This document shows, piece after piece, positions 4,771-59,500 of a stretch of 64,000 nt of DNA. How positions within the stretch are numbered: the stretch's first letter is position 1; every line of letters begins with the position of its first letter. The position numbers and the translations under genes are program-made. The stretch is from Bdellovibrionales bacterium (GTDB lineage: Bacteria > Bdellovibrionota > Bdellovibrionia > Bdellovibrionales > UBA1609): contig OZ244719.1 of NCBI GenBank assembly GCA_965219095.1, positions 1-64,000 of the forward strand, given 5' to 3'. Under the pieces are notes generated by a model. That model was not told where the DNA came from and made no database searches. It saw nothing but the letters and a program-made list of their open reading frames with translations.

Positions 4771-4896
4771 AATTATTCTATATGCTAAACTCTTAAACAA
4801 GTGACAAAGGTTTTGAATAGATAGAAAACAGAACCTAAAAACAAAATAATCATGAGAAAGGTTTAAAAAATTAAACATTTAAGTAGGAGGTAAATA

Positions 4897-5173
4897 ATAA
4901 AAACAAAAATTTTTTTCCATTTAGCGAGCTTAAGTCTAGTCTTTGCTTTTTCCAGCTTTTTTGTCTTTCAGAAAAAGTCAACACAATGCCATGCTTTAGG
5001 GTGTTCTTATGATATATGATAAAAGATGCTTTCAAGAAAAGAAAGTTTATGGGTTTGCCCTCAGACCTTTAAGTAAAGAATTAGGTGGCTCGGTTAATTC
5101 CTCTCCTGCTATAATGGGTGATGGAAAAATTGCCATAGGTTCTCGGGATAAAAAGGTTTATGTTTTAGAGCTT
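4897..5173 (+). pseudogene. Decayed paralog of the beta-propeller gene at 52370-53602
   Basis: Clear DNA similarity to the 5' end of that gene; start ATG>ATA behind AGGAGG, frameshift near 5010, truncated after the first blade by an IS66 end. Confidence 0.85.
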
Positions 5174-5328
5174 CTGGGTAGCGTATAAACTTCTTGTTGG
5201 AATTCTTCTCTCGACAAAGCTGTATCTTCTTTTTTAAATTAATTCCCTCTTCCATAAAATCCTCCTTCTTAAGAAAAACTTATAAGAGAAATTTAAACTT
5301 GGATAGGGCGGTCAGATAACCGAGTTAC
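5171..5328 (-). mobile_element. IS66 left-end remnant
   Basis: Near-identical to 59461-59618, including the terminus GTAACTCGGTTATCTGACCGCCC (minus strand). Confidence 0.85.
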
Positions 5329-5606: not shown

Positions 5607-6584
5607 TTATTGTACATTCAAACTTGGTTCAAGGGCTTCAGATGTATGTTTTTCCACTGGTTGACCACTTGGAGAAAGTTCTATTTCTTGGCCATGGTAG
5701 CCTGTTGCAAGTTTTATTCTGCCATTTTGGTAAATTTCAATAGAGGCTTTATTAGACAAGGGGACGCCGCTTTGTATTCCTTTCAAAGGAAATCCAAACA
5801 ATTGTTCTCCTTCTTTTGCATAAAGAGCTGTTGTGAAACCTTTATCATTGAAAATTACAGCCTGAGCTAAAACCGTCAAGCCATTCCGAATATTATCATT
5901 CACCAGAGTTATCGGACGAAAGCGATGACCGCTGAAAGCCAACAACTGTTTTCTTTTAGTAGTGGGTTGAAAATAAATATAATCATCGGATAAAAGCTGG
6001 ACTCCATTGATTTCATAATCTTCAGCAATACGCCCATAAAGTACATACCAATTTGATATATCATTTACATTACAATTATTACGATGAGTTCTACAGAAAA
6101 CTGCAATGCTCGAGTTTTCTTTCAACATAATCCCTTCCACTGCTGTACGTTCTTTAAGTGCGCCCCTTACTTTAATAGACCTGCCCATATCAGATTTTAA
6201 TGCTGTTTTGTACACTTCATCTCTCCTATCGTTTAATGGACGACTACCGAAGGCGGAAATGCCAGGTTCTCCAAGTGAAACTGTTATACGATATTTGAAA
6301 TTCAAATGGCCAAATTGAAAACCATTATCAGAATACATCACTGCACTAAGAAGCTTCCCAAAGTCATTTGCTTGATTTGAGATGCGCAATGTGACTTGAG
6401 TTCCAGCCGTCAGGGGTAATCCAAAATAAGTGGAATTTTCAGCTAGGGTAAAATTTATTTCGTTATATGGATTGGATTTTGCGAGAACATATTGAGAAAA
6501 ACCCAAAAAACATATTAAAAATAATAATTTTCCTAATACCTTATTTGTGAGTACCATTTTATTGATTGTTTGTAATTTTTTCAT
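5607..6584 (-). CDS. Hypothetical exported protein
   Basis: 325 aa ORF, AGGAGG RBS, N-terminal hydrophobic signal ending VLA; no recognised domain. Confidence 0.75.
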   Translation of the reverse strand: MKKLQTINKMVLTNKVLGKLLFLICFLGFSQYVLAKSNPYNEINFTLAENSTYFGLPLTAGTQVTLRISNQANDFGKLLSAVMYSDNGFQFGHLNFKYRITVSLGEPGISAFGSRPLNDRRDEVYKTALKSDMGRSIKVRGALKERTAVEGIMLKENSSIAVFCRTHRNNCNVNDISNWYVLYGRIAEDYEINGVQLLSDDYIYFQPTTKRKQLLAFSGHRFRPITLVNDNIRNGLTVLAQAVIFNDKGFTTALYAKEGEQLFGFPLKGIQSGVPLSNKASIEIYQNGRIKLATGYHGQEIELSPSGQPVEKHTSEALEPSLNVQ

Positions 6585-6709
6585 TTTTTACCTCCTATTT
6601 GTTATTTTGTTTATATTTGTTTACTTTGTTTATTTTATTTTCCTCCTACTTTGCTTGATACTCTTACTTGAAAAAACTATTCTTATCTATTAAAAATCCT
6701 CCTTTCACT

Positions 6710-6994
6710 TTAAAAAAACGACATTAGGTCTTTTCTTATGTTTTTTACCTTTGCTTCCAAGAGTTCAAGCTCTCTAAAAATTTTATTCTGATCCGGTTTT
6801 TTCCCTGTAATAAGCTCAAATAGGCTAAGATTAAAGAGTGAAGCGATTTTTGGATACGACTCCTCTCCTTGAATCGCTCTCCCATACTCCCACTCTCGAT
6901 AGGTAGTTTCCGGAACTCCGAGTTTCTCAGCTGTACTTTTTACCGTCCAACCTTGACCTTGTCTTAAAGCTTTTAGTCTCTTATTAAAATTCAA
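6710..6994 (-). CDS. XRE-family helix-turn-helix regulator
   Basis: RLKALRQGQGWTVKSTAEKLGVPETTYREWEYG, Cro/CI-type HTH. Confidence 0.88.
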   Translation of the reverse strand: MNFNKRLKALRQGQGWTVKSTAEKLGVPETTYREWEYGRAIQGEESYPKIASLFNLSLFELITGKKPDQNKIFRELELLEAKVKNIRKDLMSFF

Positions 6995-7387
6995 GTTTTT
7001 TCTCCTCTAGAATCTTTCTAGCACACTCTGTTTGTTTTCTAAAATGATATAATTTCAATAAAATTGTACAATAAAATAGAATAATAAAATGAATTAACAT
7101 TTGTGATAGTTGTGACTTGAACCGAGGGGTTATTTTATATAACCTCTTGAAAACACTAAAAAGAGAATAAAAACAATAACTAACACTTCCTTGTTTCAGG
7201 CCAAATGCACACACTTTTTCACAGTTTTGGATAGTTAATCACGAACAAATCACGAACAAACTTCTCAAGAAAATGGTAGGGAGAATAACAACCGACCAAC
7301 ATAACTATGTTATGTTGTACTAGGTTTATAAAAAAACAACCTTCAAAAGGATACATGGCTGTTTGTCAAGGAAGTGATATTTAATCA

Positions 7388-7638
7388 CCTAAATTCGGGG
7401 CAAAAAATATCCACTACAAACATCCTAACATTTAAAATATCTTAAAACGGTCTTTCTTCTTCTAAGAAAAGACAAGATTTCTTGAAAAAGAAAGGGGTTT
7501 GCCATTGACTACTATCTGTAGTAGTGTATATATTATACATTATAGGAGGGGATATGAGCTTCATAAGAAAAATAAAAAAAGGCAATAAAACTTAGTAAAA
7601 TGACAACTGTAGTGTATATTTTTGACCCCGAATTTAGG
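7388..7638 (+). mobile_element. 251-bp internally deleted IS1634-type MITE
   Basis: TIRs CCTAAATTCGGGGCAAAAAATAT / ATATTTTTGACCCCGAATTTAGG; flanking duplication TTAATCA; retains MSFIRKIKKGNKT* similar to the start of the transposase at 57436-58974. Confidence 0.85.
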
Positions 7639-7697
7639 TTAATCAGTTACACAATTTAATTTACAGACTCATAATACAGTTTTCTGACTTTACTTTT

Positions 7698-9179
7698 TCA
7701 ATCCAGTCCTTTGAGAAATTCTACTACATCAAAATGTCCTTTTGCTTTCGCCAACATAAGTGCTGTCCTTCCCTTATTATCTTTAGCATTTACATTTGAA
7801 ACTTTAGAAAGAAACTCTACAATATCGAGATGTCCGTAACGTGCTGCGAACATAAATGCTGTCCATCCGTCATTATCTTTAGCATTTACAGCTAAACCTT
7901 TAACTTTAAAAAGAATCCTTACAATATCGAGATGTCCTACTCTTGCGGCCCACATAAATGCTGTCATTCCCTTATTATTTTTAGCATTTACAGCTAAACC
8001 TTTAACTTTAGAAAGAAGCTCTACAATATTGAGATGTCCGTAATATGTTGCATATATAAGTGCTGTCCATCCGTCATTATCTTTAGCATTTACATCTAAA
8101 CCTTTAACTTTAGAAAGAAGCTCTACAATATCGAAATATCCTTCTCTTGCTGCATGCATAAGTGCTGTCATTCCGTATTTATCTTTAGCATTTACAGCTA
8201 AACCTTTAACTTTAGAAAGAAGCTCTACAATATTGAGATGTCCGTAATATGTTGCATATATAAGTGCTGTCCATCCGTCATTATCTTTAGCATTTACATC
8301 TAAACCTTTAACTTTAGAAAGAAGCTCTACAATATCGAAATATCCTTCTCTTGCTGCATGCATAAGTGCTGTCATTCCGTATTTATCTTTAGCATTTACA
8401 GCTAAACCTTTAACTTTAGAAAGAAGCTCTACAATATTGAGATGTCCGTAATATGCTGCATGCATAAGTGCTGTCCATCCGTATTTATCTTTAGCATTTA
8501 CATCTAAACCTTTAACTTTAGAAAGAAGCTCTACAATATTGAGATGTCCGTAATATGCTGCATGCATAAGTGCTGTCCATCCGTATTTATCTTTAGCATT
8601 TACATCTAAACCTTTAACTTTAGAAAGAAGCTCTACAATATTGAGATGTCCGTAATATGTTGCATATATAAGTGCTGTCCATCCGTCATTATCTTTAGCA
8701 TTTATTACTGAAAATTCGAGAAGAAACTTTACAAGATTTGAATCTCCTTTCTTTACTGCATCTATAAGTTTACCTCCTTTTAAATTAGCACCATTCCTAT
8801 TAAGAGCTTTAGCAAAACTTAAATCCCCATTTTTTATTGCTTTCGTAAGTGCATTTTGTGCTGGTTCATTATTCGCATCAGCTTTGTGTGATAAAAGAAG
8901 TTCTGCCATTTTTTTGCGACCAGAATTAAGAGCATATGCCAACATAGTTTCATTTTCATAACCAATCTTATAATTCACAGGTATTTCAGCTTGACACTGT
9001 TCTAATATTTTTCTGAAAATATTAATTCTTCCTTTGGAAATAATTTTTCTTAACTCTTTTTTGAAGTATTTAGAGCAATCCACATCTTCAGAAAAAGCAG
9101 GAAAGCTTAAGCTTATTAAAGCTCCCATAGCAAATAAAGCTATTAAAGCTTTCCTTATATTATTGTTATTTGGTTTCAT
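7698..9179 (-). CDS. Ankyrin-repeat protein with signal peptide
   Basis: 493 aa; hydrophobic leader ending AFS; ten tandem ~34-aa ankyrin units plus degenerate N-terminal repeats; AGGAGG RBS. Confidence 0.95.
   Translation of the reverse strand: MKPNNNNIRKALIALFAMGALISLSFPAFSEDVDCSKYFKKELRKIISKGRINIFRKILEQCQAEIPVNYKIGYENETMLAYALNSGRKKMAELLLSHKADANNEPAQNALTKAIKNGDLSFAKALNRNGANLKGGKLIDAVKKGDSNLVKFLLEFSVINAKDNDGWTALIYATYYGHLNIVELLSKVKGLDVNAKDKYGWTALMHAAYYGHLNIVELLSKVKGLDVNAKDKYGWTALMHAAYYGHLNIVELLSKVKGLAVNAKDKYGMTALMHAAREGYFDIVELLSKVKGLDVNAKDNDGWTALIYATYYGHLNIVELLSKVKGLAVNAKDKYGMTALMHAAREGYFDIVELLSKVKGLDVNAKDNDGWTALIYATYYGHLNIVELLSKVKGLAVNAKNNKGMTAFMWAARVGHLDIVRILFKVKGLAVNAKDNDGWTAFMFAARYGHLDIVEFLSKVSNVNAKDNKGRTALMLAKAKGHFDVVEFLKGLD
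7701..8703 (-). repeat. Tandem 102-bp coding repeat (ankyrin units)
   Basis: Recurring CTTTAGCATTTACA-CTAAACCTTTAACTTTAGAAAG at 102-bp period, near-identical at DNA level. Confidence 0.95.
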
Positions 9180-9301
9180 AACATCCTCCTTTTATTTGTG
9201 AAAGATATTTATTTCGAATAGCTATCTTTCATTTTTTTGTTTTTAAGTCCTATTTTCTTATATTGTTAGGTAGGACTTCTAACTCTTCTAAAATTATATA
9301 T

Positions 9302-9317
9302 AGCAAAAACTATTCCA
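9302..9317 (-). promoter_or_regulatory. Sigma-54 -24/-12 promoter motif upstream of ankyrin gene
   Basis: TGGAATAGTTTTTGCT has exact GG-N10-GC spacing; conserved in the second copy at 53778-53793. Confidence 0.7.
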
Positions 9318-9373
9318 AGCTTAACTCCTTATTATTTAAAGCTGAGCCTCTAAGACTGTAAAAAAAATTCAAA

Positions 9374-9394
9374 AGGTGACAAAAATTGTCACCT
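9374..9394. promoter_or_regulatory. Palindromic activator-binding-like site
   Basis: AGGTGACAA-AAA-TTGTCACCT perfect inverted repeat ~60 bp upstream of the -24 element; second copy at 53849-53869 with one mismatch. Confidence 0.6.
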
Positions 9395-9654
9395 ACTCCT
9401 TTAAAACGTTATAGACTTCCAGTCTGGCCTTGTTTTCATAATCATTAAAATGAGTCTATCATAAAGAAGTTAAAAACACAAACTATTTTTTAAAACTATA
9501 AAAACTGTATAAATTTTTCATAGTGATGTAATTTTTACCTTTCAAAAAGGAGAAAAGAGAACTTCTTTTTAAGAATGGGTCCGACTTCAACGTTTTCCAC
9601 TACTCTGTAAAAGCCCATTTTTCGAGAGTCTTTTTCACATCTTGTCGAAGTCAG

Positions 9655-9795
9655 GAGCTCATATTAATCAAAGCAAGAGTAAGACATCCTGTCTTGTATT
9701 TTTGAGTTCTTTGAGGCCTTACTGGCCTCTATCACCTCCGGTGATTGAACTCAAAAACATTCATTTTATTTGCTGTATTACATTAAAATCTTAAA
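9655..9795 (+). mobile_element. ISL3 leader fragment
   Basis: Matches ~15383-15535 of ISL3 copy 2; additional isolated ISL3-like ends at ~9983-10010, ~13758-13785 and ~15130-15238. Confidence 0.8.
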
Positions 9796-10273
9796 GAAAG
9801 AGAAGAAAAGGTGCGGAATGAAAAAACAAGAATCCTGAGGGTTCCTAGAAAAACCTTTTTTAAATTGAAAGATTAATTAGGTAATATAAAGTAAAGATAT
9901 TGATCTGTTTTCTTTAAATTTCTCTAAAAACCAAGCTATTGTTTTCATATATGCACGTTTTTAAGAATCTGTTTGAAATAAAGGCTCCTCAAAAGAATCT
10001 GTGGGTAAAAGCACCCTAAGAAACATCCTCCTCGTAAGAGTCAAGGACTGTTAAGAAACCGACTTACTAACATAATTTCTCTCAATTTAGCCTCTAAAAT
10101 TCTTGACCGGACAAAATACTTGGTTTTTAGAATCATAACAACAAGAAGGATGATAAATAAAGCTAAAGATTTCAATAAGTTATGTCTCATCTCTTTTTTA
10201 CCTTTGAAAGTAGGGCTTATCTTGATATATTTAATTTGGTGTGTTATAATAGTACATTAGAGGATATTGAGTT

Positions 10274-19619: not shown

Positions 19620-20870
19620 TCAACTTATCTTGATGGTCATAATTTTTTCTTTTGTGTACCTTACACGCCCTAGACGATCTCCTTTGATAGGTTGGACAAA
19701 ACGCACTTCTGTCAAAAGAACATCAAATTTTTCACCTTCTTTGAGTTCTGAAGAAGAACGAAAATTATGCTGAATAAAAAAATGACAAACTTCTTCAAGT
19801 TCCTTTTGTGCTATTCTCTGCTTCTTATTGCGACGGATAATACCATGAGCTCCCGGATAATCCTTCAAATGAAGCCAAAAATACCAAGGCTTAGCATAAC
19901 GAAGAAGGGATAAATTATCTTTTGCTGAACGTCCCACCCAACAAGAACAGTGAAAAAACTCTTTCTTTTTTCCTTTAAACTTTAATTGCAAAAAGGGATC
20001 AGACTTCTTTTTTTCTTTTTTTGTTAATTGAGTTTTAGTTAATAAAGCTTCTAATTCACTTTTTCTTTTCTCCAAGCGATCTATCTTACCCTTTAAGCCC
20101 TTTGACAGTTTATAAGCTTTCTGCAAAAGTTCATAGACTGTCATATCTTTATCCACAAACTTAAGAAATTCCTGAGGCAGTTTTTCAAGAGAAAGATTTT
20201 TAGGAAGAATTTCTTTCTCTATAAAATAAGCTAATCTTTTATAAACATCATCCTTATATAAAAGAAGTTGCTCTTTAATTTGTTTTAAAGCTTTCTTTCT
20301 CTTCTCTTTTGTTTCATCTTGTTTTTTCACTCTTTTAAGTGTTGAAGACCTCTTTAAAGCAAACCATTCATCTTCTATAGATTTTAAATCACGCACCTCA
20401 AAAGGTTTTTTAAAAGTTTTACTATAACCTTCATGAGTCTTTTTTATTTCTTTTACTTTAAACCAACTCATTTTTTTCTCTCCTGCTTTTATAATAAAGT
20501 TACACCCTTTAGAGAAAAACCTAAACTCCCATAAAAACCTTTCTTTAAAATGAAAAAACAGAATGCGATCTTGACTTGATTTAAGAATTACAGAATCAAC
20601 TTTTAAGCCTTTAAAATGAGCTTTTAAAAAAAGTGAAACAGGCTTTGTTTTAGCTTGAAATCCCTGTGAAAAAGAAGGATTCTTATCAAAAAGAAAACAA
20701 ACAGGATGGGATATGGAAAAATCAAACCACAAATAATAAACTTGTCCCTTCTTATAGAAAATGGTGAGAAGATCTCGTTCTGAGGAAATAACATTTTGAA
20801 GCACAGAAGCCTTTAAAAATTGTAATCGCTTTTCTAATTGAAGAGCTTCCTCTCCATTCACAGGCTTCAT
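19620..20870 (-). CDS. NFACT/RqcH-like RNA-binding protein
   Basis: C-terminal VGRSAKDN..L, WLHLKDYPGAHGII (NFACT-R/DUF814-like). Confidence 0.75.
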   Translation of the reverse strand: MKPVNGEEALQLEKRLQFLKASVLQNVISSERDLLTIFYKKGQVYYLWFDFSISHPVCFLFDKNPSFSQGFQAKTKPVSLFLKAHFKGLKVDSVILKSSQDRILFFHFKERFLWEFRFFSKGCNFIIKAGEKKMSWFKVKEIKKTHEGYSKTFKKPFEVRDLKSIEDEWFALKRSSTLKRVKKQDETKEKRKKALKQIKEQLLLYKDDVYKRLAYFIEKEILPKNLSLEKLPQEFLKFVDKDMTVYELLQKAYKLSKGLKGKIDRLEKRKSELEALLTKTQLTKKEKKKSDPFLQLKFKGKKKEFFHCSCWVGRSAKDNLSLLRYAKPWYFWLHLKDYPGAHGIIRRNKKQRIAQKELEEVCHFFIQHNFRSSSELKEGEKFDVLLTEVRFVQPIKGDRLGRVRYTKEKIMTIKIS

Positions 20871-22300
20871 TCAGAGATTAAACCATCAGATGATTCATCT
20901 ACCCCTTCTTCAGAGTCATCTAAGAGGCTAATTTTGTATTTTTCTGCTCTGTATCTCATAGAACGAAAACTAATGTTCAATAACTCAGCTGCCTTTTTCT
21001 TATTCCCTCCTGCCGTATGAATAGACTTTACAATCAATTCCTTTTCAAGCTGGCCTAAAATCTTATCTAAATCAATACCTTTATCTGTCATAACCACTTC
21101 TTGTGCTGAAACAATTTTTACACCCTCTGGTGTATTGATAAAAGGAGGTAAACTTTCAGGAAGTAGCATATTACCCCCTTCTAAGGCCACAGTTCTTTCT
21201 ATGATATTTTCAAGCTCTCTTACATTTCCAGGATAATCATAGTTAGTGAGAACTTCAATCGCATCTTTGCTAAGATCCACAATGTTTTTATTAAACTTTT
21301 TGTTGAATTTTTCTAAAAAATGACGAGCTAAGAGGGAAATGTCTTCTTTCCTATCACGCAGAAGAGGACAGGGAATGCGAATGACATTTAATCGATAATA
21401 AAGATCCTCTCTAAATACACCTTTCTTAATCATAAATTCTAAATTTTGGTTTGTGGCTGCAATAATACGTACATCAACATGAATGTCTTCTATACTGCCC
21501 ACTTGACGAATGATTTTCTCTTGTATGGCTCTTAAAAGCTTCACTTGAACTGAAAGAGAAAATTCACCTACTTCATCTAAAAACAAAGTTCCTCCATCGG
21601 CTATCTCAAAAAGTCCTTTTTTATCCACATAAGCTCCTGTAAAAGAGCCTTTTTTATGACCAAACAATTCACTTTCTATAAGATTCTCAGGTAAAGCTCC
21701 GCAGTTAACTGTCACAAAGGATTTATCTTTTATAGAACTCTTGTTATGAATGGCTCTTGCAACCATTTCTTTTCCTGTGCCGGATTCCCCTGTAATTAAG
21801 ACATTTGTAGAAGTCTGAGATACCCTCTCAATCATATGAAAAACATCCTTTAAAACACCCGAATTACCAATAAAATTCTCTATATCAAAGCTTTTTTTCA
21901 ATTCTTTTTTGAGCATTTTATTCTCTTCTCTTAAAAAATTTCTAGAAAGAGTATTTTTTATATTGATTCTAACTTCATCAATTTTAAAAGGCTTAAGTAT
22001 ATAATCATAAGCTCCTAGCTTCATAGCCTCTACAGCTGTCTCTGTCGTTCCAAAAGCTGTAATCATTAAAAACAGAAGAGTCGGATCTTGATCTTTAGCT
22101 TTCTTTAAAAGTTCGATTCCCGTCATCTTAGGCATTTGAAGATCAGAGATTACCAAGTCAAAAGACTTTTTCTGAAACAAATCAAAAGCTTTTTGACCAT
22201 CCTCAGCTACTGTCACATCATAGCCTTCTTTTTTCAACATAATGTCAAGAAATTCACGAATAGATGGTTCATCATCTACGACTAAAATTCTAGGATTCAT
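20867..22300 (-). CDS. pilR: Sigma-54-dependent response regulator (PilR-like)
   Basis: REC domain, GESGTGKE, GSFTGA, C-terminal Fis HTH; follows a histidine kinase in the pil operon. Confidence 0.85.
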   Translation of the reverse strand: MNPRILVVDDEPSIREFLDIMLKKEGYDVTVAEDGQKAFDLFQKKSFDLVISDLQMPKMTGIELLKKAKDQDPTLLFLMITAFGTTETAVEAMKLGAYDYILKPFKIDEVRINIKNTLSRNFLREENKMLKKELKKSFDIENFIGNSGVLKDVFHMIERVSQTSTNVLITGESGTGKEMVARAIHNKSSIKDKSFVTVNCGALPENLIESELFGHKKGSFTGAYVDKKGLFEIADGGTLFLDEVGEFSLSVQVKLLRAIQEKIIRQVGSIEDIHVDVRIIAATNQNLEFMIKKGVFREDLYYRLNVIRIPCPLLRDRKEDISLLARHFLEKFNKKFNKNIVDLSKDAIEVLTNYDYPGNVRELENIIERTVALEGGNMLLPESLPPFINTPEGVKIVSAQEVVMTDKGIDLDKILGQLEKELIVKSIHTAGGNKKKAAELLNISFRSMRYRAEKYKISLLDDSEEGVDESSDGLISE

Positions 22301-23970
22301 CCTAACTGCTCTCCTTTAGTTTTTTCCACTTTAGCCTCCTGAAAAGATAAATAAAAGGTAGTACCTTTATTTTCTTTGCTTTTTACAAAAATTTCAACCC
22401 CATGACTTATTAAAATTCTATGAGAAATAGCCATCCCTAAACCCGTACCCCTTGCTTTAGTCGTATAGAAAGGGTGGAAAAGATTTTTTAAAATCTCTTT
22501 CGACATACCACAGCCATTATCCTCAATCTTCAAAACAACTTTCCCTCCTTCATCATAAGAAGAGATCTCTAAATAAGGATCTTCTTTCTTATCCATAGCT
22601 TGATAGGCATTAAACAGGATGTTTAAAAGAGCTTGTTTTAGTTTATCAAAATGCCCCATAAAGCTCTTTTGGCTTCTAAACTCTAATTCATGAACTACAG
22701 CCTGTCTTATATCCTCGGAGACAAGATGGATAGACTCCCTTACAAGAAGTGCTACATCTATCAACTCCTCATCCCCTTTTTCATAACGAGAAAATTCTAA
22801 AAACTCCGATACAAGGTCATTCAAACGATCAAATTCTCTCAAAACAATAAAAAGAAGCTTTTGGTATTGGTCCTCTAAATCTAACTGTGAAAGCATCTGT
22901 AAACTACCGCTAATGCTCGCTAAAGGGTTTCTAATTTCATGAGCTAAACCTGCAGACAATTGTCCTATAGCAGCCATTTTTTCTTTTTGTTTTATGCTGT
23001 TTTCTAAGGCCTTTAACTCTGTTCTATCTTCAAAGATTACAATAAAACCTTTTTTCTTATTTTTTGTCTCATGAAATTCATTCCAATGAATTTCAAAAAC
23101 ACAGTCTTTTGTTTTAAATTCTCTAATGCCTTGTTTTTTCTTTAAAATTGCAGTCCATACCTCAGGCCAAACCTTGGGTAAAAAAACGCCCTCTTTAAAA
23201 AAAATCTCTCCCTTCTTTGCCCTATTATTCATAAATATAACTCTTCCTTTTTCATCTAAAGCCATAAAATTTAACAAGCTATTTTCTACAATAACTTGAT
23301 TAAAGTCTAGAAGAGCTTGAACTTTTAAACTCTGATCTTTTAAGACTGCCCTAAATATCTCTGATCGATTTAAAAATTGGAGACTAAAGAAACTAAAAAT
23401 AAAAAAAGAAACTCCATTTGTTATAAGTAAAAAATAAATGTTTCCAGAAAATACTTCTACACTAGTTGTTACACAGGTTAAAACAAAAACCTGCCAAGCT
23501 GCTAAAAGAAAAACTTCTCCTTTATCTAAGAGAAGCGTTCCCAAGAGAATGTTAATCAAGTAAAAAATTAAAAAAAAAGAAATTCCCAAATGAGTTTGGT
23601 AAATTAAAAAAGAAAGAAAAACAGCATCTAAAAATAAAAGAAACTTATGAGAGTGAGGAGATTTCCATAATCGGTCAACAAAAATAAAAACTGCATTCAC
23701 AAGAAAAAATAAAGAAAGAACTGAGTATAAGGGGATGGATAAAGAGGGTATAAGAAATTGAATATGAAAAAAATCAAAAGATAAAATCACTAAAGATACC
23801 GCAAAGAGAGGAAGCAATCTTATTTTTTGAAAAAGCTCTTTTTGTTCTTCCGAAACAAGAGTTTGCTTTTGAAATAAAGAATCCAAATCTATCAAAGTTT
23901 CTGGGTTTTTAAAAAAAATATAGTTTAAAATTTTATTCATTTTCTCTTTAAAGATTTTGTGCCATACCAA
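22297..23970 (-). CDS. pilS: Membrane sensor histidine kinase (PilS-like)
   Basis: Multiple TM helices, AHEIRNPL, DNGCG, GTGLG; directly downstream of pilC. Confidence 0.82.
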   Translation of the reverse strand: MVWHKIFKEKMNKILNYIFFKNPETLIDLDSLFQKQTLVSEEQKELFQKIRLLPLFAVSLVILSFDFFHIQFLIPSLSIPLYSVLSLFFLVNAVFIFVDRLWKSPHSHKFLLFLDAVFLSFLIYQTHLGISFFLIFYLINILLGTLLLDKGEVFLLAAWQVFVLTCVTTSVEVFSGNIYFLLITNGVSFFIFSFFSLQFLNRSEIFRAVLKDQSLKVQALLDFNQVIVENSLLNFMALDEKGRVIFMNNRAKKGEIFFKEGVFLPKVWPEVWTAILKKKQGIREFKTKDCVFEIHWNEFHETKNKKKGFIVIFEDRTELKALENSIKQKEKMAAIGQLSAGLAHEIRNPLASISGSLQMLSQLDLEDQYQKLLFIVLREFDRLNDLVSEFLEFSRYEKGDEELIDVALLVRESIHLVSEDIRQAVVHELEFRSQKSFMGHFDKLKQALLNILFNAYQAMDKKEDPYLEISSYDEGGKVVLKIEDNGCGMSKEILKNLFHPFYTTKARGTGLGMAISHRILISHGVEIFVKSKENKGTTFYLSFQEAKVEKTKGEQLG

Positions 23971-47473: not shown

Positions 47474-48394
47474 TTAAAAGATGGTAAGTTCATAGATATA
47501 AAAAACAAAAGGTCCTACAAAAATAAGTTTGTCCATGCGATCAATAATATCATCTCTTCCTAAAATAAAAATCCCTGTATCTTTCATATTCAAATCTCTA
47601 CGAATGACCGTTAGCAAAAGATCTCCTAGAAGACTTAAAAGTGCAATGATAAAACCAATAAAAATAACATAGTCTTGGAGGCGAAAGGGCAGTATATTCG
47701 TTAAAAAATAAGACATAATGCCTGATGAAAGTAAAGCCATTAAAATTCCTGGGAAAGTAATTTTTCTACTAATTTTTGAAAATAAAAAGCCTTTTTTTAC
47801 AAAATGACTTGTTACTAGACAGGAAACCTCTGCTATCTCTGCAATAATGAGCGTAAAGATACAAAAAAAGAAACCATCTTCAAAATACACAATACGAGCT
47901 AGATGAAGAGGTGCCCAGGCGAAAAAGAGGAAGCCAAAAAGACACAAACCCATATACTGGATCATATTTTGATAATCATTTTTTAAAAGAGGTATCAATG
48001 AAGTACTAGCTAGAAAGATCATTGGAGATAAATTATAATAATCGTAATGTTCTTTATAAATGATCCAAAATAAAAATCCTATGAAAAAATAGGTCATAAG
48101 AACAAAAATATGACGGTGATACATCCCCACCATCTGAAAAAATTTCTTACATGTATATACACTAAACAAGCACAGTAAAAATAAAATGAAAATTTCATTT
48201 TTAATACTAAAAAGTAAAAACAAAATAGGAACTAGAAATATCCACGTTCGTACACTAGCCCATAACAGTTTCGTATAAGAGTACTCCTCATGAAAACGAT
48301 ACACAGCCAAAGCAGTTGCAATGATCAAAACCATAACTTGAAAAAAGGTCTTTGTATAAAGGGGATCACCCCACATGGAATCTTGAAATAACAC
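47474..48394 (-). CDS. Phosphatidate cytidylyltransferase-family membrane protein
   Basis: Polytopic; SKISRKITFPG, GDL...IRRDLNMKD, IIDRMD. Confidence 0.8.
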   Translation of the reverse strand: MLFQDSMWGDPLYTKTFFQVMVLIIATALAVYRFHEEYSYTKLLWASVRTWIFLVPILFLLFSIKNEIFILFLLCLFSVYTCKKFFQMVGMYHRHIFVLMTYFFIGFLFWIIYKEHYDYYNLSPMIFLASTSLIPLLKNDYQNMIQYMGLCLFGFLFFAWAPLHLARIVYFEDGFFFCIFTLIIAEIAEVSCLVTSHFVKKGFLFSKISRKITFPGILMALLSSGIMSYFLTNILPFRLQDYVIFIGFIIALLSLLGDLLLTVIRRDLNMKDTGIFILGRDDIIDRMDKLIFVGPFVFYIYELTIF

Positions 48395-49677
48395 TAATAT
48401 ATTATTTTATAGTACTTTAGCTTTTTGTAAAGGGTGGCTCTTGATAAACCTAAGACTCTTTGAACCTCATCTAAGGCTTTATACTTATACACACAAGATC
48501 GAATGACCTCTTTTTCATACTCTTTGACCATAGAATTCAAATTTTGATAAGAAGAAGGGCCTGAAAAGCTATTATAGGGATATAAGAAAGGCTCTACATC
48601 CTCTCTTTCAATGACAGGAAGCAAAGTATAACAAAGAAGATTTTCACTCACTTTCTTAAGCTCCCTTACATTTCCAGGCCAATTGTACTCCTTAAGACAC
48701 AAAAGAGCTTCTTTGCTCAAAGTTTTTTTACGTTTTTTAGTATCTTGAGAAAAAAAGAGTTCTACAAGAGACTCAATATCCTCTTTTCTATCTCTTAGAG
48801 GAGGAAGCTCTATGGTCTTGCACCTTAGACGCCACAAAAGATCAGCCCTAAACTCCCCTTTTTTGACTTTTTGAGTTAAACATTCATTTGTAGCTGCTAA
48901 AATACGACATTCCACTTTTTGAACCTTTGAACTCCCTATAGCCCTCACTTCTTGATTTTCTAAAAATCTAAGAAGTTTTGCTTGAGAGCTAAGAGAAAGG
49001 GCTTCAATCTCATCTAAAAACAAATCCCCTCTATGAGCTTTTAAAACTAAACCTTCATGATCTCGATCCGCTCCTGTAAAAGCTCCTTTTTTATAACCAA
49101 ACATCTGACTTTCAAACAAACTTTCGCTTAAACCTGCCACATTAACGCAAACAAAGGGCTTATGAGGAGAAGATAGAAGCTGAGCTACAATCTCTTTTCC
49201 CGCACCACTTTCCCCTTCAATAAGAAGAGGACCTTTTTCATCCTTTAAACAAGAGATTTGTTTTTTGATCTTTTGGGATAAAACACCCCTTCCTCTCCAC
49301 AAACAACTTTCTTTCTGAAACTCCCACCAAGACTCTATTCTATTAAGAACCAACAAAAACTCCTCTCTTTGAAGAGGTACTTGGAAAACATGGAAAGCCC
49401 CCCTATCAAGTGCTCTTCTCATAAGTTTTACTTGAGGTAATTTAAAAACCACAATTACCTCAGAAAGAGGATGAATTTTTTTCAAAAATGATATCTGTTT
49501 CAAATCTTTCTCACAGCTTATTTCTAAGAGAAAAATAGGTGCTTTTTGAGGAAAGTATCTTAAAACAGCACCTCTTAAAAACCCTTCCATAAAAGCCTCA
49601 ATCTTTAGGTTTTTAATTTTTAATGTCACTTTATAAGATTCTAGCCTCTGCTTCATAGATGTAGTAGTTATAGACAA
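48394..49677 (-). CDS. Sigma-54-dependent transcriptional activator with degenerate receiver domain
   Basis: GESGAGKE, GAFTGA, LFLDEI, WPGNVREL, C-terminal HTH. Confidence 0.9.
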   Translation of the reverse strand: MSITTTSMKQRLESYKVTLKIKNLKIEAFMEGFLRGAVLRYFPQKAPIFLLEISCEKDLKQISFLKKIHPLSEVIVVFKLPQVKLMRRALDRGAFHVFQVPLQREEFLLVLNRIESWWEFQKESCLWRGRGVLSQKIKKQISCLKDEKGPLLIEGESGAGKEIVAQLLSSPHKPFVCVNVAGLSESLFESQMFGYKKGAFTGADRDHEGLVLKAHRGDLFLDEIEALSLSSQAKLLRFLENQEVRAIGSSKVQKVECRILAATNECLTQKVKKGEFRADLLWRLRCKTIELPPLRDRKEDIESLVELFFSQDTKKRKKTLSKEALLCLKEYNWPGNVRELKKVSENLLCYTLLPVIEREDVEPFLYPYNSFSGPSSYQNLNSMVKEYEKEVIRSCVYKYKALDEVQRVLGLSRATLYKKLKYYKIIY

Positions 49678-52369: not shown

Positions 52370-53602
52370 TTATGGTTTGGACTCACAAGTAATCTGTTCT
52401 CTATAAACTTTTATTAATGTTTCATTTAAAGTATTTAAAACATAAACCTTCTTATCCTCAGAGCCTACGACAATTTTATTATCATCCATTATAGCAGGAG
52501 AGGAATCAACCCAGCCACCTGTTTTAAAAGAAGCTACTTTAACTAACTTCTTACCCTTAAGCTCTAAAACATAAACCCTCTTATCAAAAGAGCCTATGAC
52601 AATTTTATTATCATCCATTATAGCAGGAGAGGAACGAACCAAGCCATCTGTTCTAAAAGAAGCTACTTTAACTAACTTCTTACCCCTAAGCTCTAAAGCA
52701 TAAACATTTTCATCATCAGAACCTATGACAATTGTTCCATTATTCATTATGGCAGGAGAGGAGCGAACCGCATCACCTGTTCTAAAAGAAGCTACTTTAA
52801 ATAATTCATTACCTGAAAGCTCTAAAACATAAACCCTCTTATCAAAAGAGCCTATGACAATTTTATCATCATCCATTATAGCAGGAGAGGAGCGAACCGC
52901 ACTACCTGTTTTAAAAGAAGCTACTTTAAATAATTCATTACCTGAAAGCTCTAAAACATAAACCCTCTCATCAAAAGAGCCTATGACAATTTTATCATCA
53001 TCCATTATAGCAGGAGAGGAGCGAACCGCACTACCTGTTTTAAAAGAAGCTACTTTAAATAACTTCTTACCCTTAAGCTCTAAAGCATAAACATTTCTAT
53101 CATCAGAACCTACGACAATTGTTCCATTATTCATTATAGCAGGAGAGGAGCGAACCGCACTACCTGTTTTAAAAGAAGCTACTTTAAATAACTTCTTACC
53201 CTTAAGCTCTAAAGCATAAACATTTCCATCATCAGAACCTACGACAATTGTTCCATTATTCATTATGGCAGGAGAGGAGCGAACCGCACCACCTGTTTCA
53301 AAGGAAGCTACTTTAAATAACTTCTTACCCTTAAGCTCTAAAGCATAAACATTTTCATCATCAGAACCTATGACAATTGTTCCATTATTCATTATGGCAG
53401 GAGAGGAGCGAACCGCACCACCTGATTTTTTACTTATAGGTTTGAGATCAAACCCATAAACTTTCTTTTCTTGAAAGCATCTTTTATCATAGGAACGTCC
53501 TAAAGCATGGCATTTTGTTGACTTTTCCTGAAAGACGAAAAAACTGGAAAAAGCAAAGACTAGATTTAAGCTCGCTAAATGAAAAAAAATTTTTGTTTTC
53601 AT
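52370..53602 (-). CDS. Exported PQQ-type (BamB-like) 8-bladed beta-propeller repeat protein
   Basis: 410 aa; hydrophobic leader; eight 43-aa units SSPAIM...IVxGSxDxxVYxLEL, 129-bp DNA period. Confidence 0.92.
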   Translation of the reverse strand: MKTKIFFHLASLNLVFAFSSFFVFQEKSTKCHALGRSYDKRCFQEKKVYGFDLKPISKKSGGAVRSSPAIMNNGTIVIGSDDENVYALELKGKKLFKVASFETGGAVRSSPAIMNNGTIVVGSDDGNVYALELKGKKLFKVASFKTGSAVRSSPAIMNNGTIVVGSDDRNVYALELKGKKLFKVASFKTGSAVRSSPAIMDDDKIVIGSFDERVYVLELSGNELFKVASFKTGSAVRSSPAIMDDDKIVIGSFDKRVYVLELSGNELFKVASFRTGDAVRSSPAIMNNGTIVIGSDDENVYALELRGKKLVKVASFRTDGLVRSSPAIMDDNKIVIGSFDKRVYVLELKGKKLVKVASFKTGGWVDSSPAIMDDNKIVVGSEDKKVYVLNTLNETLIKVYREQITCESKP

Positions 53603-53689
53603 TATTTACCTCTTATGGATTGAAGGTGTTTAATTTTAAAACACTTTCTTATTATTTTGTTTTATAAGCCCTATTTTCTTAACTATTTA

Positions 53690-53736
53690 CCTAACTTTCT
53701 TAAATCCTAGTGAGTAAAAATTGTCTCGAATTTAGG
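53690..53736. mobile_element. 47-bp IS1634-type scar with 6-bp TSD
   Basis: CCTAA...CCTAGTGAGTAAAAATTGTCTCGAATTTAGG; TATTTA at 53684-53689 and 53737-53742; absent from the homologous region at ~9250-9280. Confidence 0.8.
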
Positions 53737-53777
53737 TATTTAAGTAAGGGCTTTTAACCTTTCTAAAATTTATGTAT

Positions 53778-53793
53778 TGCAAAAACTATTCCA
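53778..53793 (-). promoter_or_regulatory. Sigma-54 -24/-12 promoter motif upstream of beta-propeller gene
   Basis: TGGAATAGTTTTTGCA; homologous to 9302-9317. Confidence 0.7.
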
Positions 53794-55455
53794 AGCTTAA
53801 CTCCTTATTATGTAAAGCTGAGCCTCTAAGACTGTAAAAAAATTTAAAAGGTAACAAAAATTGTCACCTACTCCTTTAAACTTAGTTTTCCAGTCTGGCC
53901 TTGTTTTTGTTTTCATAATCATTAAAAGGAGTCTATCATAAGAAGTTAAAAAACACAAACTATTTTTTTAAAACTATAAAAACTGTATAAACTTTTTATA
54001 GTAATATAATTTTTTCATACTTAAGCTTCTTATAAAACTTAAAGAAGATTTAGAATCTTCTTTTGAAAATTTCCCTTTAAACTTCTATGAAAAAGAAAAT
54101 ATGGATGACCAATATTTTTGAAAAGCTGGGACTTAAAAACCCTGATTAGAAGAGTTAGACTCATCTAAGAAGTAAACTCATAAAAAGGAGCTTACTATTA
54201 ACAACAAAAAAGGAGGTCATCCGTAAGTCGGTTTCTTAACAACCCTTGACTTCTACTGAGGAGGATATTTCTTAGATTTTAAAGAAGAATAAGAGCCACA
54301 TTTTGATCTGCTATCTTTTTTTGTGATAGTTCCTAAGAATTTATCTCTGATGCCTTTAGCTCCTTATAGTCCAGAATTAAATCCCATGGAACAAGTCTGG
54401 CAACAATTACGAAGGATCAAATTATCGAATGCATGTTTTAAAAACTATGACCATATAGTGAATACTTGTTGTGAGGCCTGGAATACTTTTTGCGATCAGG
54501 AGGGTAGGATTAAAAAATTATGCACTCGATCTTGAGCAAAACAACAAGATGAATCAAGCTTGTAAATTAATTTGAACCTATAAATTAAATTGTGTAACTG
54601 ATTTTTTTCATTTTAAATTTTAACCTCACTTTTTTTCACTTATTTTAACCCATCAATCGATTTACACAACAAATAGATATACCTGAAATAAACATATCTT
54701 ATGAAAACTTAATCTCCCCTCAAAAAAAATTCTTTTAAAACCTCCTAATTGAAGCTTTTCCTTAAGTCAATTTTAAAATTTTAAATTTGAACATAAAAAT
54801 GTCGAATTAATTTCTGTAATTGGCATCATGAGCTGACAAAAAAATGCCCTTCCGGGGAGATTGAGAGTCTGATTCCAATTTTAATGGATGCTCAAGTTGA
54901 CCTTAACCCTCATCAAGTTGAAGCTGCCCTTTTTGCTTTCAAGTCCCCTCTCTCAAAAGGTGTTATTTTAGCGGATGAAGTAGGTTTAGGAAAAACTATT
55001 GAGGCAGGAATTTTACTTTCTCAAAAATGGGCTGAGAGAAAAAGAAAAATTTTAATTATTGTACCCTCTAGTTTAAGAAAGCAATGGAATAGAGAACTTT
55101 TAGAAAAATTCTTTCTTCCGTCTTTTATTTTAGAAACAAAATCTTTTAATCAAAATCTTAAAGATGATAATAACAATCCATTCGATCAAAACAACAAAGT
55201 CGTTATAGCCTCTTATCAGTTTGTAAGAAATAAAGCAGATTATGCAAAACTAATTCAATGGGATTTAGTTGTTATTGATGAAGCTCACAGATTAAGAAAT
55301 GTCTATAAAGAGGATAATAAGATTGCCCGTTGCCTTAGGGACACATTTCAAGAAATTCCAAAAATTCTATTAACAGCCACGCCTCTACAAAATTCACTTA
55401 TGGAGTTATATGGTTTAACAGACTTTAAAACAATTCAAAAAGGAAGTTTTAAAAT

Positions 55456-56552: not shown

Positions 56553-59500
56553 GACAGTGCTTTTTTCTTACATAGCTTCTTACATGAACATCAAGCTCTC
56601 CTGACACGTCTTGAATCTTTAATTCCTCCCACTCACTGTCCTTAGGATAACCATACTGCTGTGCTATATCAGAAAGCTCTTCGTCTGTGAGCTTATGATC
56701 TACTTTTATCTCTTCTAAATCCTTCATCTCCTCTTCTTTAGGAGCAGGAACTAAACTCTCAGATTCAAGCAGAATTTTCTTTTTAAGCTTCTTTCTACTA
56801 CGAGAAGATAGTTTTCTTTTTTCACTGGATTTTCCAAACACTATTTTCTTGAACTTATTAAGTAGCTCATCATTAAAAAGCTTTAATTGATCTTCTTGAG
56901 CCTTTTTCTTCTTAAGCTCATTTAACTCTCCTTTTAAAAGTTTAATTTCTTTTTTATAAAGGTGAATGAATTCATTGAAAATCAACTTTACATTTTCCGT
57001 GTCTTTTTCCTCTCGAACAAACGAAGGAAGATGTTTGTATTCAGGTTTTTCGCTTTTTTTTAAATAAGGAAAAAGACTCATCTGCATACATTAATGTCAA
57101 CACGTCTTTTTTTGTTTTGCAAGCTTTTTTTTAAAAAAATAATCTAAAAAAATTATCTTTTCTTAAGCTCGTACTTTCTTAAAATCGAACCATGAACTAA
57201 AAGCTTAAGCTCACTCCTTGTTAACTCGGGAGAACTTAAATCACTTAAACTCATAAACCTTTTTTTCTCCATCCTCTTTGTTAGTAAAATAAGACCACTA
57301 CCATCATAGAACAGACCTTTTAATCTCCTTCTATTAAAACCTAGAAAGAGATAAAGATCTCCCAAGTTGATCTCTCCTTTCATTTCACTTCTTACTAGAT
57401 ACCTAAATTTTTGGCCAAAAGTATACACTAGGTTTTCAAGAAAGCATTATGTGATTCTTTAAAATTTTTGGGTCCACCGATTTCAATATCTGTTCTTGAG
57501 TTTTGTTAAGAGTTACGGTTCTAGTAAATTTATGTTTTTTACGGTTATCTGATAGATAAACGTTGTACATAGTTTCTAAGTTTTCAATTGCTTTTTCTGG
57601 CGACATATTTATGCCCTTAGATTTTAGATTTAGTTTAAGGATAGATAATATGAGATAAGATAAATAGCAGATAAAAACATGTGACTTGACTCTCTTATTT
57701 AACCAAAATCTAATAGGGCGTACATTTGAAATACCTTTTAAAGTTTTGAAAGCTCTTTCAATGATCTCTTTGTCAAAATACAATCTCACCATTTCTTTGT
57801 CGGAGATCTTCTTCGTAGAAAATATACACGAGTATCCATCAAGCTCCTCATCTTTCTTTAACACATCAGTTCTTATTCTTCCCCTGGGAGTCAAGTGCTT
57901 TCTAAGTCCTTCTTCAATTTTTTTATTTTTATTTATTAACTCCTGAGCATTTAGAATCCTTTTCCTCCTTGACTCTGTGATTTCTGTTTTTTTAGATTCA
58001 TTATAGCAGATGACAAGCTTTCCTTTAATCGATCCGAATGAATGAGGTATACCTTTAACGTAAAAAATACTTTCTCCAATTGTCACCATATTTGAAATAT
58101 TATTTATAGAATCATTCTTTATAGTTCGTCTTATGATAGCTTTTTCTTTTTCTCGCATAGGCAAGCCACACAACGTGTGCCAGCCTAAATCCCCTATGAA
58201 ATCAATGTTTTTCTCGGATACTATGCCTCGATCATAGATGAGTAGTCCAGACTGAAGACTGTGTTGAGAAAAATTATTGGAAACGTCCGCTAGAGTTTTA
58301 CTGTCATGGATATTTCCATCAAAGGTTTTGTGGAATACTGGAATTCCGTCCTTTTGAGTCGTTGCAAGTGCTATTTGGATAAGATCATTTTGTCGACGCC
58401 CATCTTTACTTCTTTCCACTTTCCCCATAACACAATGCTTCCCATAAAAATAAGTGTTTGTTAGATCATATACTATTCCTTTAGAGTCCAACCTATACAT
58501 CTTTTTTACGTTGCTAAAAATAGACCTTTGATAAATCTCTATTTGATCATCATTTATACTATCCATTGCTTTAACTAATCGAGCTTCCGTTAGATTTCCT
58601 AAATCTAAAAGAAGATTTAAGTCTGTCCTCTCGTACCATTTTGGCATATTACGTACACTTCTATAATCCATACAGTGGGCATAAATCATACTGAGAATCT
58701 CATCAGAATATTCACCTAAAATTTCTGGAAGTTTAATTTTTTTTGAGATACTATGGAATAGTAAAAGGGGGCCATATACCTTAACTCCATCCACTTGGAG
58801 ATCTTTTGATGAGAGAGAAAGCACAACTTCTCCATTAATCTCTTTTCCAATATAACGAATATGCTTTTGAACCGATTTCCCATTGATCCATTTGCTCTCA
58901 ACTTCAGCCAAATAAACTTGTCCATCCTTCTTTTTTATTCTTCTAATGAAACTCATCGCATATCCTCCTAGCAATCCTGCTGTATATATTATACATCAGG
59001 ATTAAGCATAGGCAAGAGTATTTATCTCTAAAAATTCTATAAAATCCTACTTTTTACGAGGGGGAATAAGAAATTTTCCAGATTCTGAGCAGAACTTAAA
59101 TCCTAGTGTATATTTTTTGTCGGGAATTTAGGTAGATAACTTAACCTCTCAAAACTCCATCGCATGTCTATCTTTTGAGAGCAGACAAAAATACGGTAGC
59201 CTTCAGATAAAAAAATCATAAATTTCTCACTAATTCTAAAACCTCTTCCCAACCTAGACCCTTTAAGACTAAGACCTTCTCTTTCATCACATGACTTTTC
59301 CTTTTTCAAAGAGACGGCCTTAAAAAGGGATTTCTTGTGAGAAAGTGTTGAAACATTGGACTTCTTCCAGTTATTGATTGTAGAAGGGCTGACTTTTGCT
59401 TCTTTACAAAATTTAGAAATCTTCTCCTCTTTCAAAAAATCTAGAATCTCTATCTTAAGTGCTTCTGGGTAGCGGATAAGCTTCTTTTTGGAATTCTTCT

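Follow-up and report, generated by a model that had tools for sequence, protein, structure and literature searches.

The window, by which we mean the whole 64,000-nucleotide stretch of DNA analyzed, contains two copies of a promoter block, each lying upstream of one minus-strand gene. One gene encodes an ankyrin repeat protein and the other a beta-propeller protein. The two proteins share no similarity (best score, 13.9 bits), in agreement with the original prediction that the coding regions are unrelated. The genes and promoter elements are the following.

7698 to 9179, minus strand: 493-aa ankyrin repeat protein, signal-peptide-like N terminus
9272 to 9536, minus strand: shared promoter block, ankyrin copy (BLASTN match to 53747-54014)
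9303 to 9318, minus strand: putative sigma-54 -24/-12 element, ankyrin copy, TTGGAATAGTTTTTGC (GG-N10-GC), PWM score 14.6
9377 to 9391, no strand: putative PilR box, perfect, in an extended palindrome at 9374-9394
52370 to 53602, minus strand: 410-aa PQQ-like beta-propeller repeat protein, 129-nt repeats, signal-peptide-like N terminus
53747 to 54014, minus strand: shared promoter block, beta-propeller copy (BLASTN match to 9272-9536)
53779 to 53794, minus strand: putative sigma-54 -24/-12 element, beta-propeller copy, TTGGAATAGTTTTTGC (GG-N10-GC), PWM score 13.8
53852 to 53866, no strand: putative PilR box, one mismatch, in an extended palindrome at 53849-53869

BLASTN aligned 9272-9536 with 53747-54014 in the same orientation at 241 of 274 identities (88%; E of 1e-93), and an additional 38-nt piece (87%) matched 9226-9260 to 53644-53681. 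A repeat of about 300 bp had been predicted upstream of both genes; the repeat is real, but the extent given for it (53660-54015) is too long, as continuous homology covers about 270 nt. The homology of the ankyrin copy with other ankyrin copies extends to about 9612 or beyond, and the segment from 7099 to 9982 is duplicated at C2:2050815-2053699 (98.8% identity). The block had been described as lacking terminal inverted repeats, and indeed neither inverted repeats nor target duplications were seen at its bounds. It had also been said to match no IS in the window. This is correct for the promoter but not for the interval given, which includes an internally deleted IS in the beta-propeller leader.

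53690 to 53736, no strand: 47-bp IS with an internal deletion and the ends of a DDE_Tnp_1 element; flanking 6-bp target duplication, 53684-53689 and 53737-53742
57401 to 59133 (about), minus strand: IS with ends common to those of this mini-IS

The mini-IS sits in the linker of the leader and leaves its stem 2 (see below) intact. The empty form is present in a paralogous leader at C2:534646, which can explain why one contig (from three runs of one study) skips 53683-53737. Elsewhere in the window, a frameshifted and truncated beta-propeller paralogue lies on the plus strand at 4816-5180 behind an IS-cut upstream region of a non-PilR type. A small HTH gene (6710-6994) and its adjoining segments (6573-7384) are repeated at several places in the genome, often beside genes for exported proteins, and a fragment of mevalonate diphosphate decarboxylase (2133-2507) lies beside IS remnants.

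Inspection of the block revealed GG-N10-GC at 9303-9318 and 53779-53794 on the minus strand, confirming the exact -24/-12 spacing that had been claimed. By the 12-nt rule, transcription would start near 9291 in the ankyrin copy and near 53767 in the propeller copy. The 107 training sites behind the scoring matrix have a median of 20.9 and a 10th percentile of 14.9; a score of 14.6 or higher is reached at only 30 places in the genome. The -24 box, TGGAAT, is noncanonical, with 5 of the 107 training sites having an A at that place; the TGGAA variant also lies behind boxes in 3 of 15 relatives' loci. GC is present at -12 in seven of eight genome copies of the block and is replaced by GT in one pseudogene copy. 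The genome encodes rpoN. We regard the sigma-54 box as weak yet credible. One diverged copy (C2:2285260-2285370) carries TTGACATG at the -24 place, a possible switch from a sigma-54 element to a sigma-70 -35 element.

The approximately 63 nt that follow the predicted start site form a leader with features of a structured RNA.

9232 to 9294, minus strand: predicted structured 5' leader, stem 2 arms at 9271-9278 and 9245-9252
53658 to 53769, minus strand: predicted structured 5' leader, stem 2 arms at 53747-53753 and 53666-53672, mini-IS in the loop

The leader is found in 22 copies in the genome (E of <0.01; none in the reversed-genome control). These precede six unrelated families (the number after merging by DNA similarity): ankyrin, beta-propeller, a secreted 240-aa orphan (ORF240), 932k/2087k, and two families labeled MKKL and MKKF from their first residues. 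The PilR/sigma-54 promoter precedes the first four of these, while MKKL and MKKF have another promoter, without the box or GG-N10-GC at the matching place. Atlas matches to ORF240 and the MKKL family were found only with scores below 0.9. A 2.5-kb unit comprising an MKKF gene and its leader is tandemly triplicated at approximately 100% identity (C2:442100-449571), either by amplification or as an effect of assembly. Enrichment for signal-peptide repeat proteins downstream had been proposed as supporting evidence. The signal peptides bear this out, a crude heuristic being passed by 20 of the 22 leader-linked genes (the misses are broken frames) versus 527 of 1601 background ORFs, but only part of the genes encode repeat proteins. 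Repeats are found in the ankyrin and PQQ propeller proteins, in a gene with a 369-nt internal repeat, and in two RCC1-repeat genes behind a decayed copy, but not in ORF240.

Two crossing stems were picked by eye from 16 related sequences of this one genome; the remaining leaders (four identical or nearly identical duplicates, one IS-cut copy, and the window propeller copy) were left out of the statistics. In these 16, 90.1% of 192 cells are paired and 6 of 12 pairs show two-sided change (0 of 500 shuffles). Sequences were also simulated along the tree, starting from a root with perfect pairing and conditioning on a comparable number of changes (1159 runs); the observed values were reached in 0.2% and 0.4% of these runs. 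Stem 1 of the ankyrin leader is in a shifted register (9279-9283 with 9265-9269), and single-sequence folding of the leader is weak. Taken together, the covariation suggests that the leader is probably an H-type pseudoknot RNA with compensatory changes. There was no Rfam match at gathering score over the leader, the leader model matched none of 60 family genomes, and the pattern was found in no metagenome contig in the scan.

The most likely role of such a leader would be to stabilize or protect the 5' end of the mRNA. RNase J was not found in this genome (94% complete), which leaves an exonuclease-blocking role without support. We also considered whether the inverted repeat might act as an operator in the DNA or as a riboswitch that senses a ligand, since it occupies the same place behind two different promoter types and H-type pseudoknots are typical of small riboswitches. 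The distance between the arms, however, differs by more than 10 nt among copies and can accommodate an insert of 53 nt, G-U pairs are frequent (favoring RNA), the ribosome-binding site is well outside the stems, and Rfam returned no match; we consider this alternative doubtful.

The genome (3.11 Mb, 34% G+C) has 23 to 26% of its length in high-copy sequence. It contains eight near-full copies of the block, at 88 to 100% identity, before three gene families. Six precede paralogues of a single ankyrin family, in which gene and promoter were duplicated together (intact at C1:7698, C1:379106, C2:1236840, and C2:2051406; two more are IS-split). One precedes the beta-propeller gene and one precedes ORF240. 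The ORF240 copy is 98% identical over 655 nt to the window ankyrin copy and is interrupted by an IS that lies after the -12 box and before the leader. Two copies carry one and the same IS (C2:207139-208284 and C2:2065529-2066674), in each case at the same TA-rich position separating the -12 box from the leader; this site is an apparent insertion hot spot, and an IS there would silence the gene. Separately, 8.6 kb at C1:220448-229047 is 99.99% identical to C2:2388495-2397094, matching the end of C2 to the interior of C1, a possible assembly overlap.

These copies could be neutral debris, that is, an ancestral promoter carried along by segmental duplication in copies that are now mostly silent and form no selected regulon. 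About one-quarter of the genome is IS, three of the eight copies look disabled (IS-cut or before pseudogenes), and the -24/-12 box is gone from several of about 10 additional, more diverged promoter relatives. A high-copy element also lies within 280 to 357 nt upstream of six of the eight copies versus a 28% baseline, although three of these share one remnant. Against this, diverged copies at C2:65626, 932288, and 2087166 have jointly kept the box and the -24/-12 element despite different spacers (the first precedes a second beta-propeller paralogue, with an inserted IS between them). In addition, leader pairing is retained beyond the simulation, and the captured genes are nearly all of the exported type. 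We therefore think it unlikely that the copies are debris alone.

The palindrome had been placed about 60 bp upstream of the -24/-12 element; the measured distance to the -24 box is 58 nt in the ankyrin copy and 57 nt in the propeller copy. Within the window alone, the two matches to it (at up to two mismatches) are no excess over chance. Genome-wide, the palindrome 17-mer had 9, 17, and 31 matches at zero, one, and two mismatches, compared with 0, 0, and 2 and 0, 1, and 6 in two shuffles. One further two-mismatch PilR-like box lies between primase-like and rpoD-like sigma factor genes (C2:1879459), with no clear sigma-54 box. The window box is an exact match to the Pseudomonas aeruginosa PilR motif GTGAC-N7-GTCAC, for which supplementary file 2 of PMC8041468 lists the HT-SELEX seed GTGACNNNNNNNGTCAC.

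To place this motif in a wider context, species genomes were scanned for the box together with a sigma-54 element. This yielded at least 117 loci, among which Massilia is overrepresented, so that the loci are not independent. A type IV pilin starts within 330 nt in 67 of the 117 loci listed; the pilin motif was present in none of 75 control windows. A further 45 have no such pilin (2 of them have a divergent pilin), and 5 were too short. Bdellovibrionaceae and Bdellovibrionales loci among those listed front the same protein types as do relatives from the same family as this genome. Second sites (up to four mismatches) cluster at -21 to -23 in 116 loci, among the matches listed, and the junctions of such tandem boxes yield TGT-N11-ACA, which is the P. 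aeruginosa PilR consensus as quoted in PMC8035640. The window boxes are single rather than tandem, and the propeller copy has a mismatch in the core. The PilR SELEX seed of P. syringae is a different, GC-rich motif (PMC7532196, supplement). From the motif match, the palindrome is a putative PilR box. Four exact spellings of its 15-mer were absent from the literature full text searched, and the complete palindrome with its AT core may have been published before. No PilR box sequence appears in the accessible portions of PMC4641369, PMC7170775, PMC3333781, PMC11841059, or a Rhodanobacter DAP-seq preprint.

A candidate activator is encoded within the window.

20867 to 22300, minus strand: PilR (receiver, AAA+ domain with GSFTGA, Fis HTH), proposed activator
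22297 to 23970, minus strand: PilS-like membrane histidine kinase with about five predicted membrane helices
23948 to 27997, minus strand: pilB-pilT-pilC, upstream of pilS-pilR (gene order)

The order pilB-pilT-pilC-pilS-pilR is that of Bdellovibrio bacteriovorus as given in PMC4237445, in keeping with the probable placement of this genome in the Bdellovibrionales. Six activators with AAA+ domains are encoded in the genome. When compared with two pilR genes that directly precede box-and-pilin loci, the product of 20867-22300 was the best of the six (322 and 392 bits; next best, 252 and 241). It was also the best in the HTH, which is 45 to 46% identical to that of the pilA-adjacent pilR. No NCBIfam model reached its cutoff on this protein. 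The window had been credited with two candidate activators. That encoded by 20867-22300 stands, whereas that encoded by 48394-49677 was rejected as the binder, being the weakest match to the pilA-adjacent PilR and giving no HTH hit. The notion of a sigma-54 promoter with an enhancer site and an activator in the window is thereby upheld, with the PilR box as the site. The similarity of its DNA-binding domain makes 20867-22300 the likely activator of the block promoters. That PilR acts on the block in this organism would follow by analogy, the binding motif having been shown for P. aeruginosa PilR.

Given that 45 of the 117 listed loci front nonpilin genes, sites of this kind may also be recognized by other activators. 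The palindrome might accordingly be read by one of the five other activators or by an OmpR-type factor, or might be an intrinsic terminator against IS read-through, as a terminator scan reports a stem with a T run behind it at 53869-53849. A look-alike seed, MTGACAAWWWTGTCAK, is listed for the P. syringae OmpR-family factor PSPPH_3294 (PMC7532196, supplement), but its spacer is one base shorter, whereas the window box matches the N7 of the PilR seed exactly. Moreover, the box associates with pilin genes and pilR among the loci listed, and HTH similarity singles out 20867-22300 from the six activators encoded. These findings make such readings quite improbable.

The expected target of PilR, pilA, was inspected in this genome and its relatives. 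The 1.4 kb upstream of the full-length pilin gene (C1:411277) contain neither the box (three mismatches allowed) nor GG-N10-GC, and no copy of the block precedes a pilin, so that the block is not seen to drive the major pilin. Instead, pilA carries one of only two perfect TAAAG-N15-GCCGATA sites in the genome, and fliA is present, scoring above the family cutoff. PMC3627812 describes FliA as the principal sigma factor of the B. bacteriovorus attack phase. In this lineage, pilA appears to have left the PilR circuit and to run on FliA. In the region G000:C1:411277-506779, the one full pilA is accompanied by eight pilin copies that lack the first 21 to 23 residues or so; these lie amid large repeats, and a putative integrase adjoins pilA.

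Across the order as a whole, the evidence for a hand-over of pilA from PilR is mixed. The box (up to one mismatch, within 450 nt) was present at none of 28 pilA loci (this genome and 27 relatives; 2 of 30 were unparsed). A sigma-54-like box is kept at pilA in 7 of the 27 relatives, and a loose FliA motif was found at 8 of 28 pilA loci versus 3 in controls. The PilR HTH was found in 36 of 40 relatives and the 17-mer (up to one mismatch) in 16 of 40 (reversed control, 1). Strict pairs of box and sigma-54 element were found in 15 of 200 genomes of the order (control, 1), once each versus eight times here. No pilin lies downstream in these 15 loci, and the signal-peptide heuristic was passed by 10 of them. 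Two of the 15 (L198 and L199) overlap the start codon region and are probably false sigma-54 matches. Among the 14 strict loci scanned for families, there were 1 ankyrin, 2 TPR, 1 MotA/TolQ, and 1 murein endopeptidase below the cutoff, with 9 having no family. In genus g62 the box was barely enriched (16 matches versus 9 control matches in 13 genomes), and a sigma-54 box was present in 2 of 15 fetched loci. One g62 locus (L195, G202:C1:1966303) has the box and a canonical sigma-54 element before a MotA/TolQ/ExbB gene, which is a candidate PilR target in gliding or invasion.

We then compared the edges of the homology among the copies. Measured from the -24 box, the 5' edges lie at -218, about -291 to -312, -442, -543, -633, and -664, and no terminal repeats or target duplications were found there in the aligned flanks. 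On the 3' side, the homology between families stops at an A-rich tract before the ribosome-binding site.

53651 to 53663, minus strand: A-rich tract, end of the promoter-leader homology between families, presumed crossover zone

In paralogues of the beta-propeller gene (C2:1419759 and C1:4897) and of ORF240 (C2:49162), the DNA upstream is different and meets the gene at the A-tract. From these junctions it follows that one gene family can have different promoters and that one promoter can front different genes. The ragged 5' ends and the joins at the A-rich tract argue for promoter capture by recombination rather than for an autonomous mobile cassette, and the spread of the block is consistent with duplication combined with short-homology recombination and not with transposition of the block itself. 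The tree of the eight copies is unresolved and does not give the donor or the direction of capture. Compared with 30 relatives, the block gave no long match; three gave matches of 29 to 47 nt only. The original prediction of a duplicated module recruiting unrelated exported genes therefore survives as regards recruitment but not as regards a portable unit that moves itself, as six of eight copies front ankyrin paralogues and the edges are ragged. A MITE-like nonautonomous element carrying the promoter and inserting upstream of genes would account for eight copies at 88 to 100% identity before three gene families, but it is highly improbable in view of the 5' ends scattered from -218 to -664, the lack of the terminal inverted repeats and target duplications that mark the fixed ends of a MITE or nonautonomous IS, the constant orientation and position before the gene, and the movement of most copies together with their gene.

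We thus favor, with reasonable confidence, the reading that the block is a PilR/sigma-54 promoter of the pilA type joined to a structured leader and spread by duplication and capture, not by its own mobility. PilS would phosphorylate PilR; bound at the palindrome, about 93 nt before the start site, PilR would activate sigma-54 RNA polymerase at the -24/-12 element, while pilA would run on FliA. The ankyrin family would have arisen by duplication of gene and promoter, and the beta-propeller, ORF240, and 932k/2087k families would have captured the promoter through recombination at the A-rich tract before the ribosome-binding site. IS saturation would provide rearrangements and also destroy copies. 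The leader would fold as a 5'-terminal H-type pseudoknot that stabilizes the mRNA.

A bolder extension, which we put forward tentatively as a possibility, is that PilS-PilR has been uncoupled from pilin and now acts as a contact switch that fires exported ankyrin, propeller, and orphan proteins, with FliA building the pili, the pseudoknot being an undescribed RNA regulator, and members being added by swapping of promoter plus pseudoknot at the A-tract. According to PMC6058289, PilS-PilR of P. aeruginosa may detect attachment of the pilus through a short-lived drop in PilA. If this holds here, attachment of the pilus would lower membrane pilin, PilR would then fire the set of exported proteins, and the PilR regulon would be induced on contact. 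A contact-triggered or prey-directed function of the targets is thus conceivable. The targets need not be aimed at a host, because the multiple ankyrin proteins of these predators include one immunity (self-protection) protein, as described in PMC13689555.

Promoter reuse and wider PilR regulons are already known, and the expansion described here is seen in one uncultured, IS-saturated genome. This genome nevertheless offers a case of regulon rewiring by promoter capture that is nameable and testable, with a known box, a known activator, and visible crossover points. It suggests that PilR in predatory Bdellovibrionales controls exported proteins and not pilin; if so, genes induced by contact, which are mostly orphans, could be traced from sequence. 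The leader may represent a new RNA structure. The pilA-type identity of the promoter, the absence of that promoter from pilA, and the structured leader go beyond the original prediction. Our literature search found neither a PilR redirected to exported orphan or repeat proteins via serial promoter capture nor the leader, and in the accessible portions of PMC3627812 and PMC13689555 no PilR regulon is described for Bdellovibrio.

Among the closest known systems is the PilS-PilR/sigma-54 pilA promoter of P. aeruginosa, Geobacter, and Myxococcus, which shares the box, the -24/-12 element, and the order pilB-pilT-pilC-pilS-pilR. It differs in that pilA here is without the box and has a FliA-type promoter, and the putative targets are lineage-specific exported proteins acquired by promoter copying. 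Broader PilR regulons have been reported for Geobacter, Dichelobacter, and P. aeruginosa, as summarized in PMC6058289. The FliA attack-phase regulon of Bdellovibrio, as presented in PMC3627812, is similar in the FliA consensus found before pilA here. Unlike in the Bdellovibrio ankyrin self-protection system, there is no gene for a partner enzyme beside the window ankyrin gene.

The leader resembles the small H-type pseudoknot leaders of the preQ1-I, SAM-II, and guanidine-III riboswitches in its two interleaved stems, A-rich linker, and location at the 5' end of the mRNA. Unlike these, it has no Rfam match and no visible expression platform and was found in this genome only among those searched. 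Terminal reassortment of type III effectors likewise brings a regulated promoter in front of new cargo genes whose products are destined for export. However, the coding N terminus is not common to the ankyrin, propeller, and ORF240 proteins, export looks to be of the Sec type, and no injection system is implicated. Finally, putative mobile promoters have been defined as stretches of 50 nt or more that share 80% identity or more and lie before unrelated coding sequences (Nijveen et al., PMC3575422). The block falls within this definition (88% over 274 nt and 98% over 655 nt, before nonparalogous genes) and is similar to those promoters also in its IS-rich context and the lack of an Rfam match. 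Unlike those promoters, it has a nameable regulator, sigma factor, and crossover zone, its capture recurs across four families with a bias toward exported proteins, and a structured leader travels along with it.
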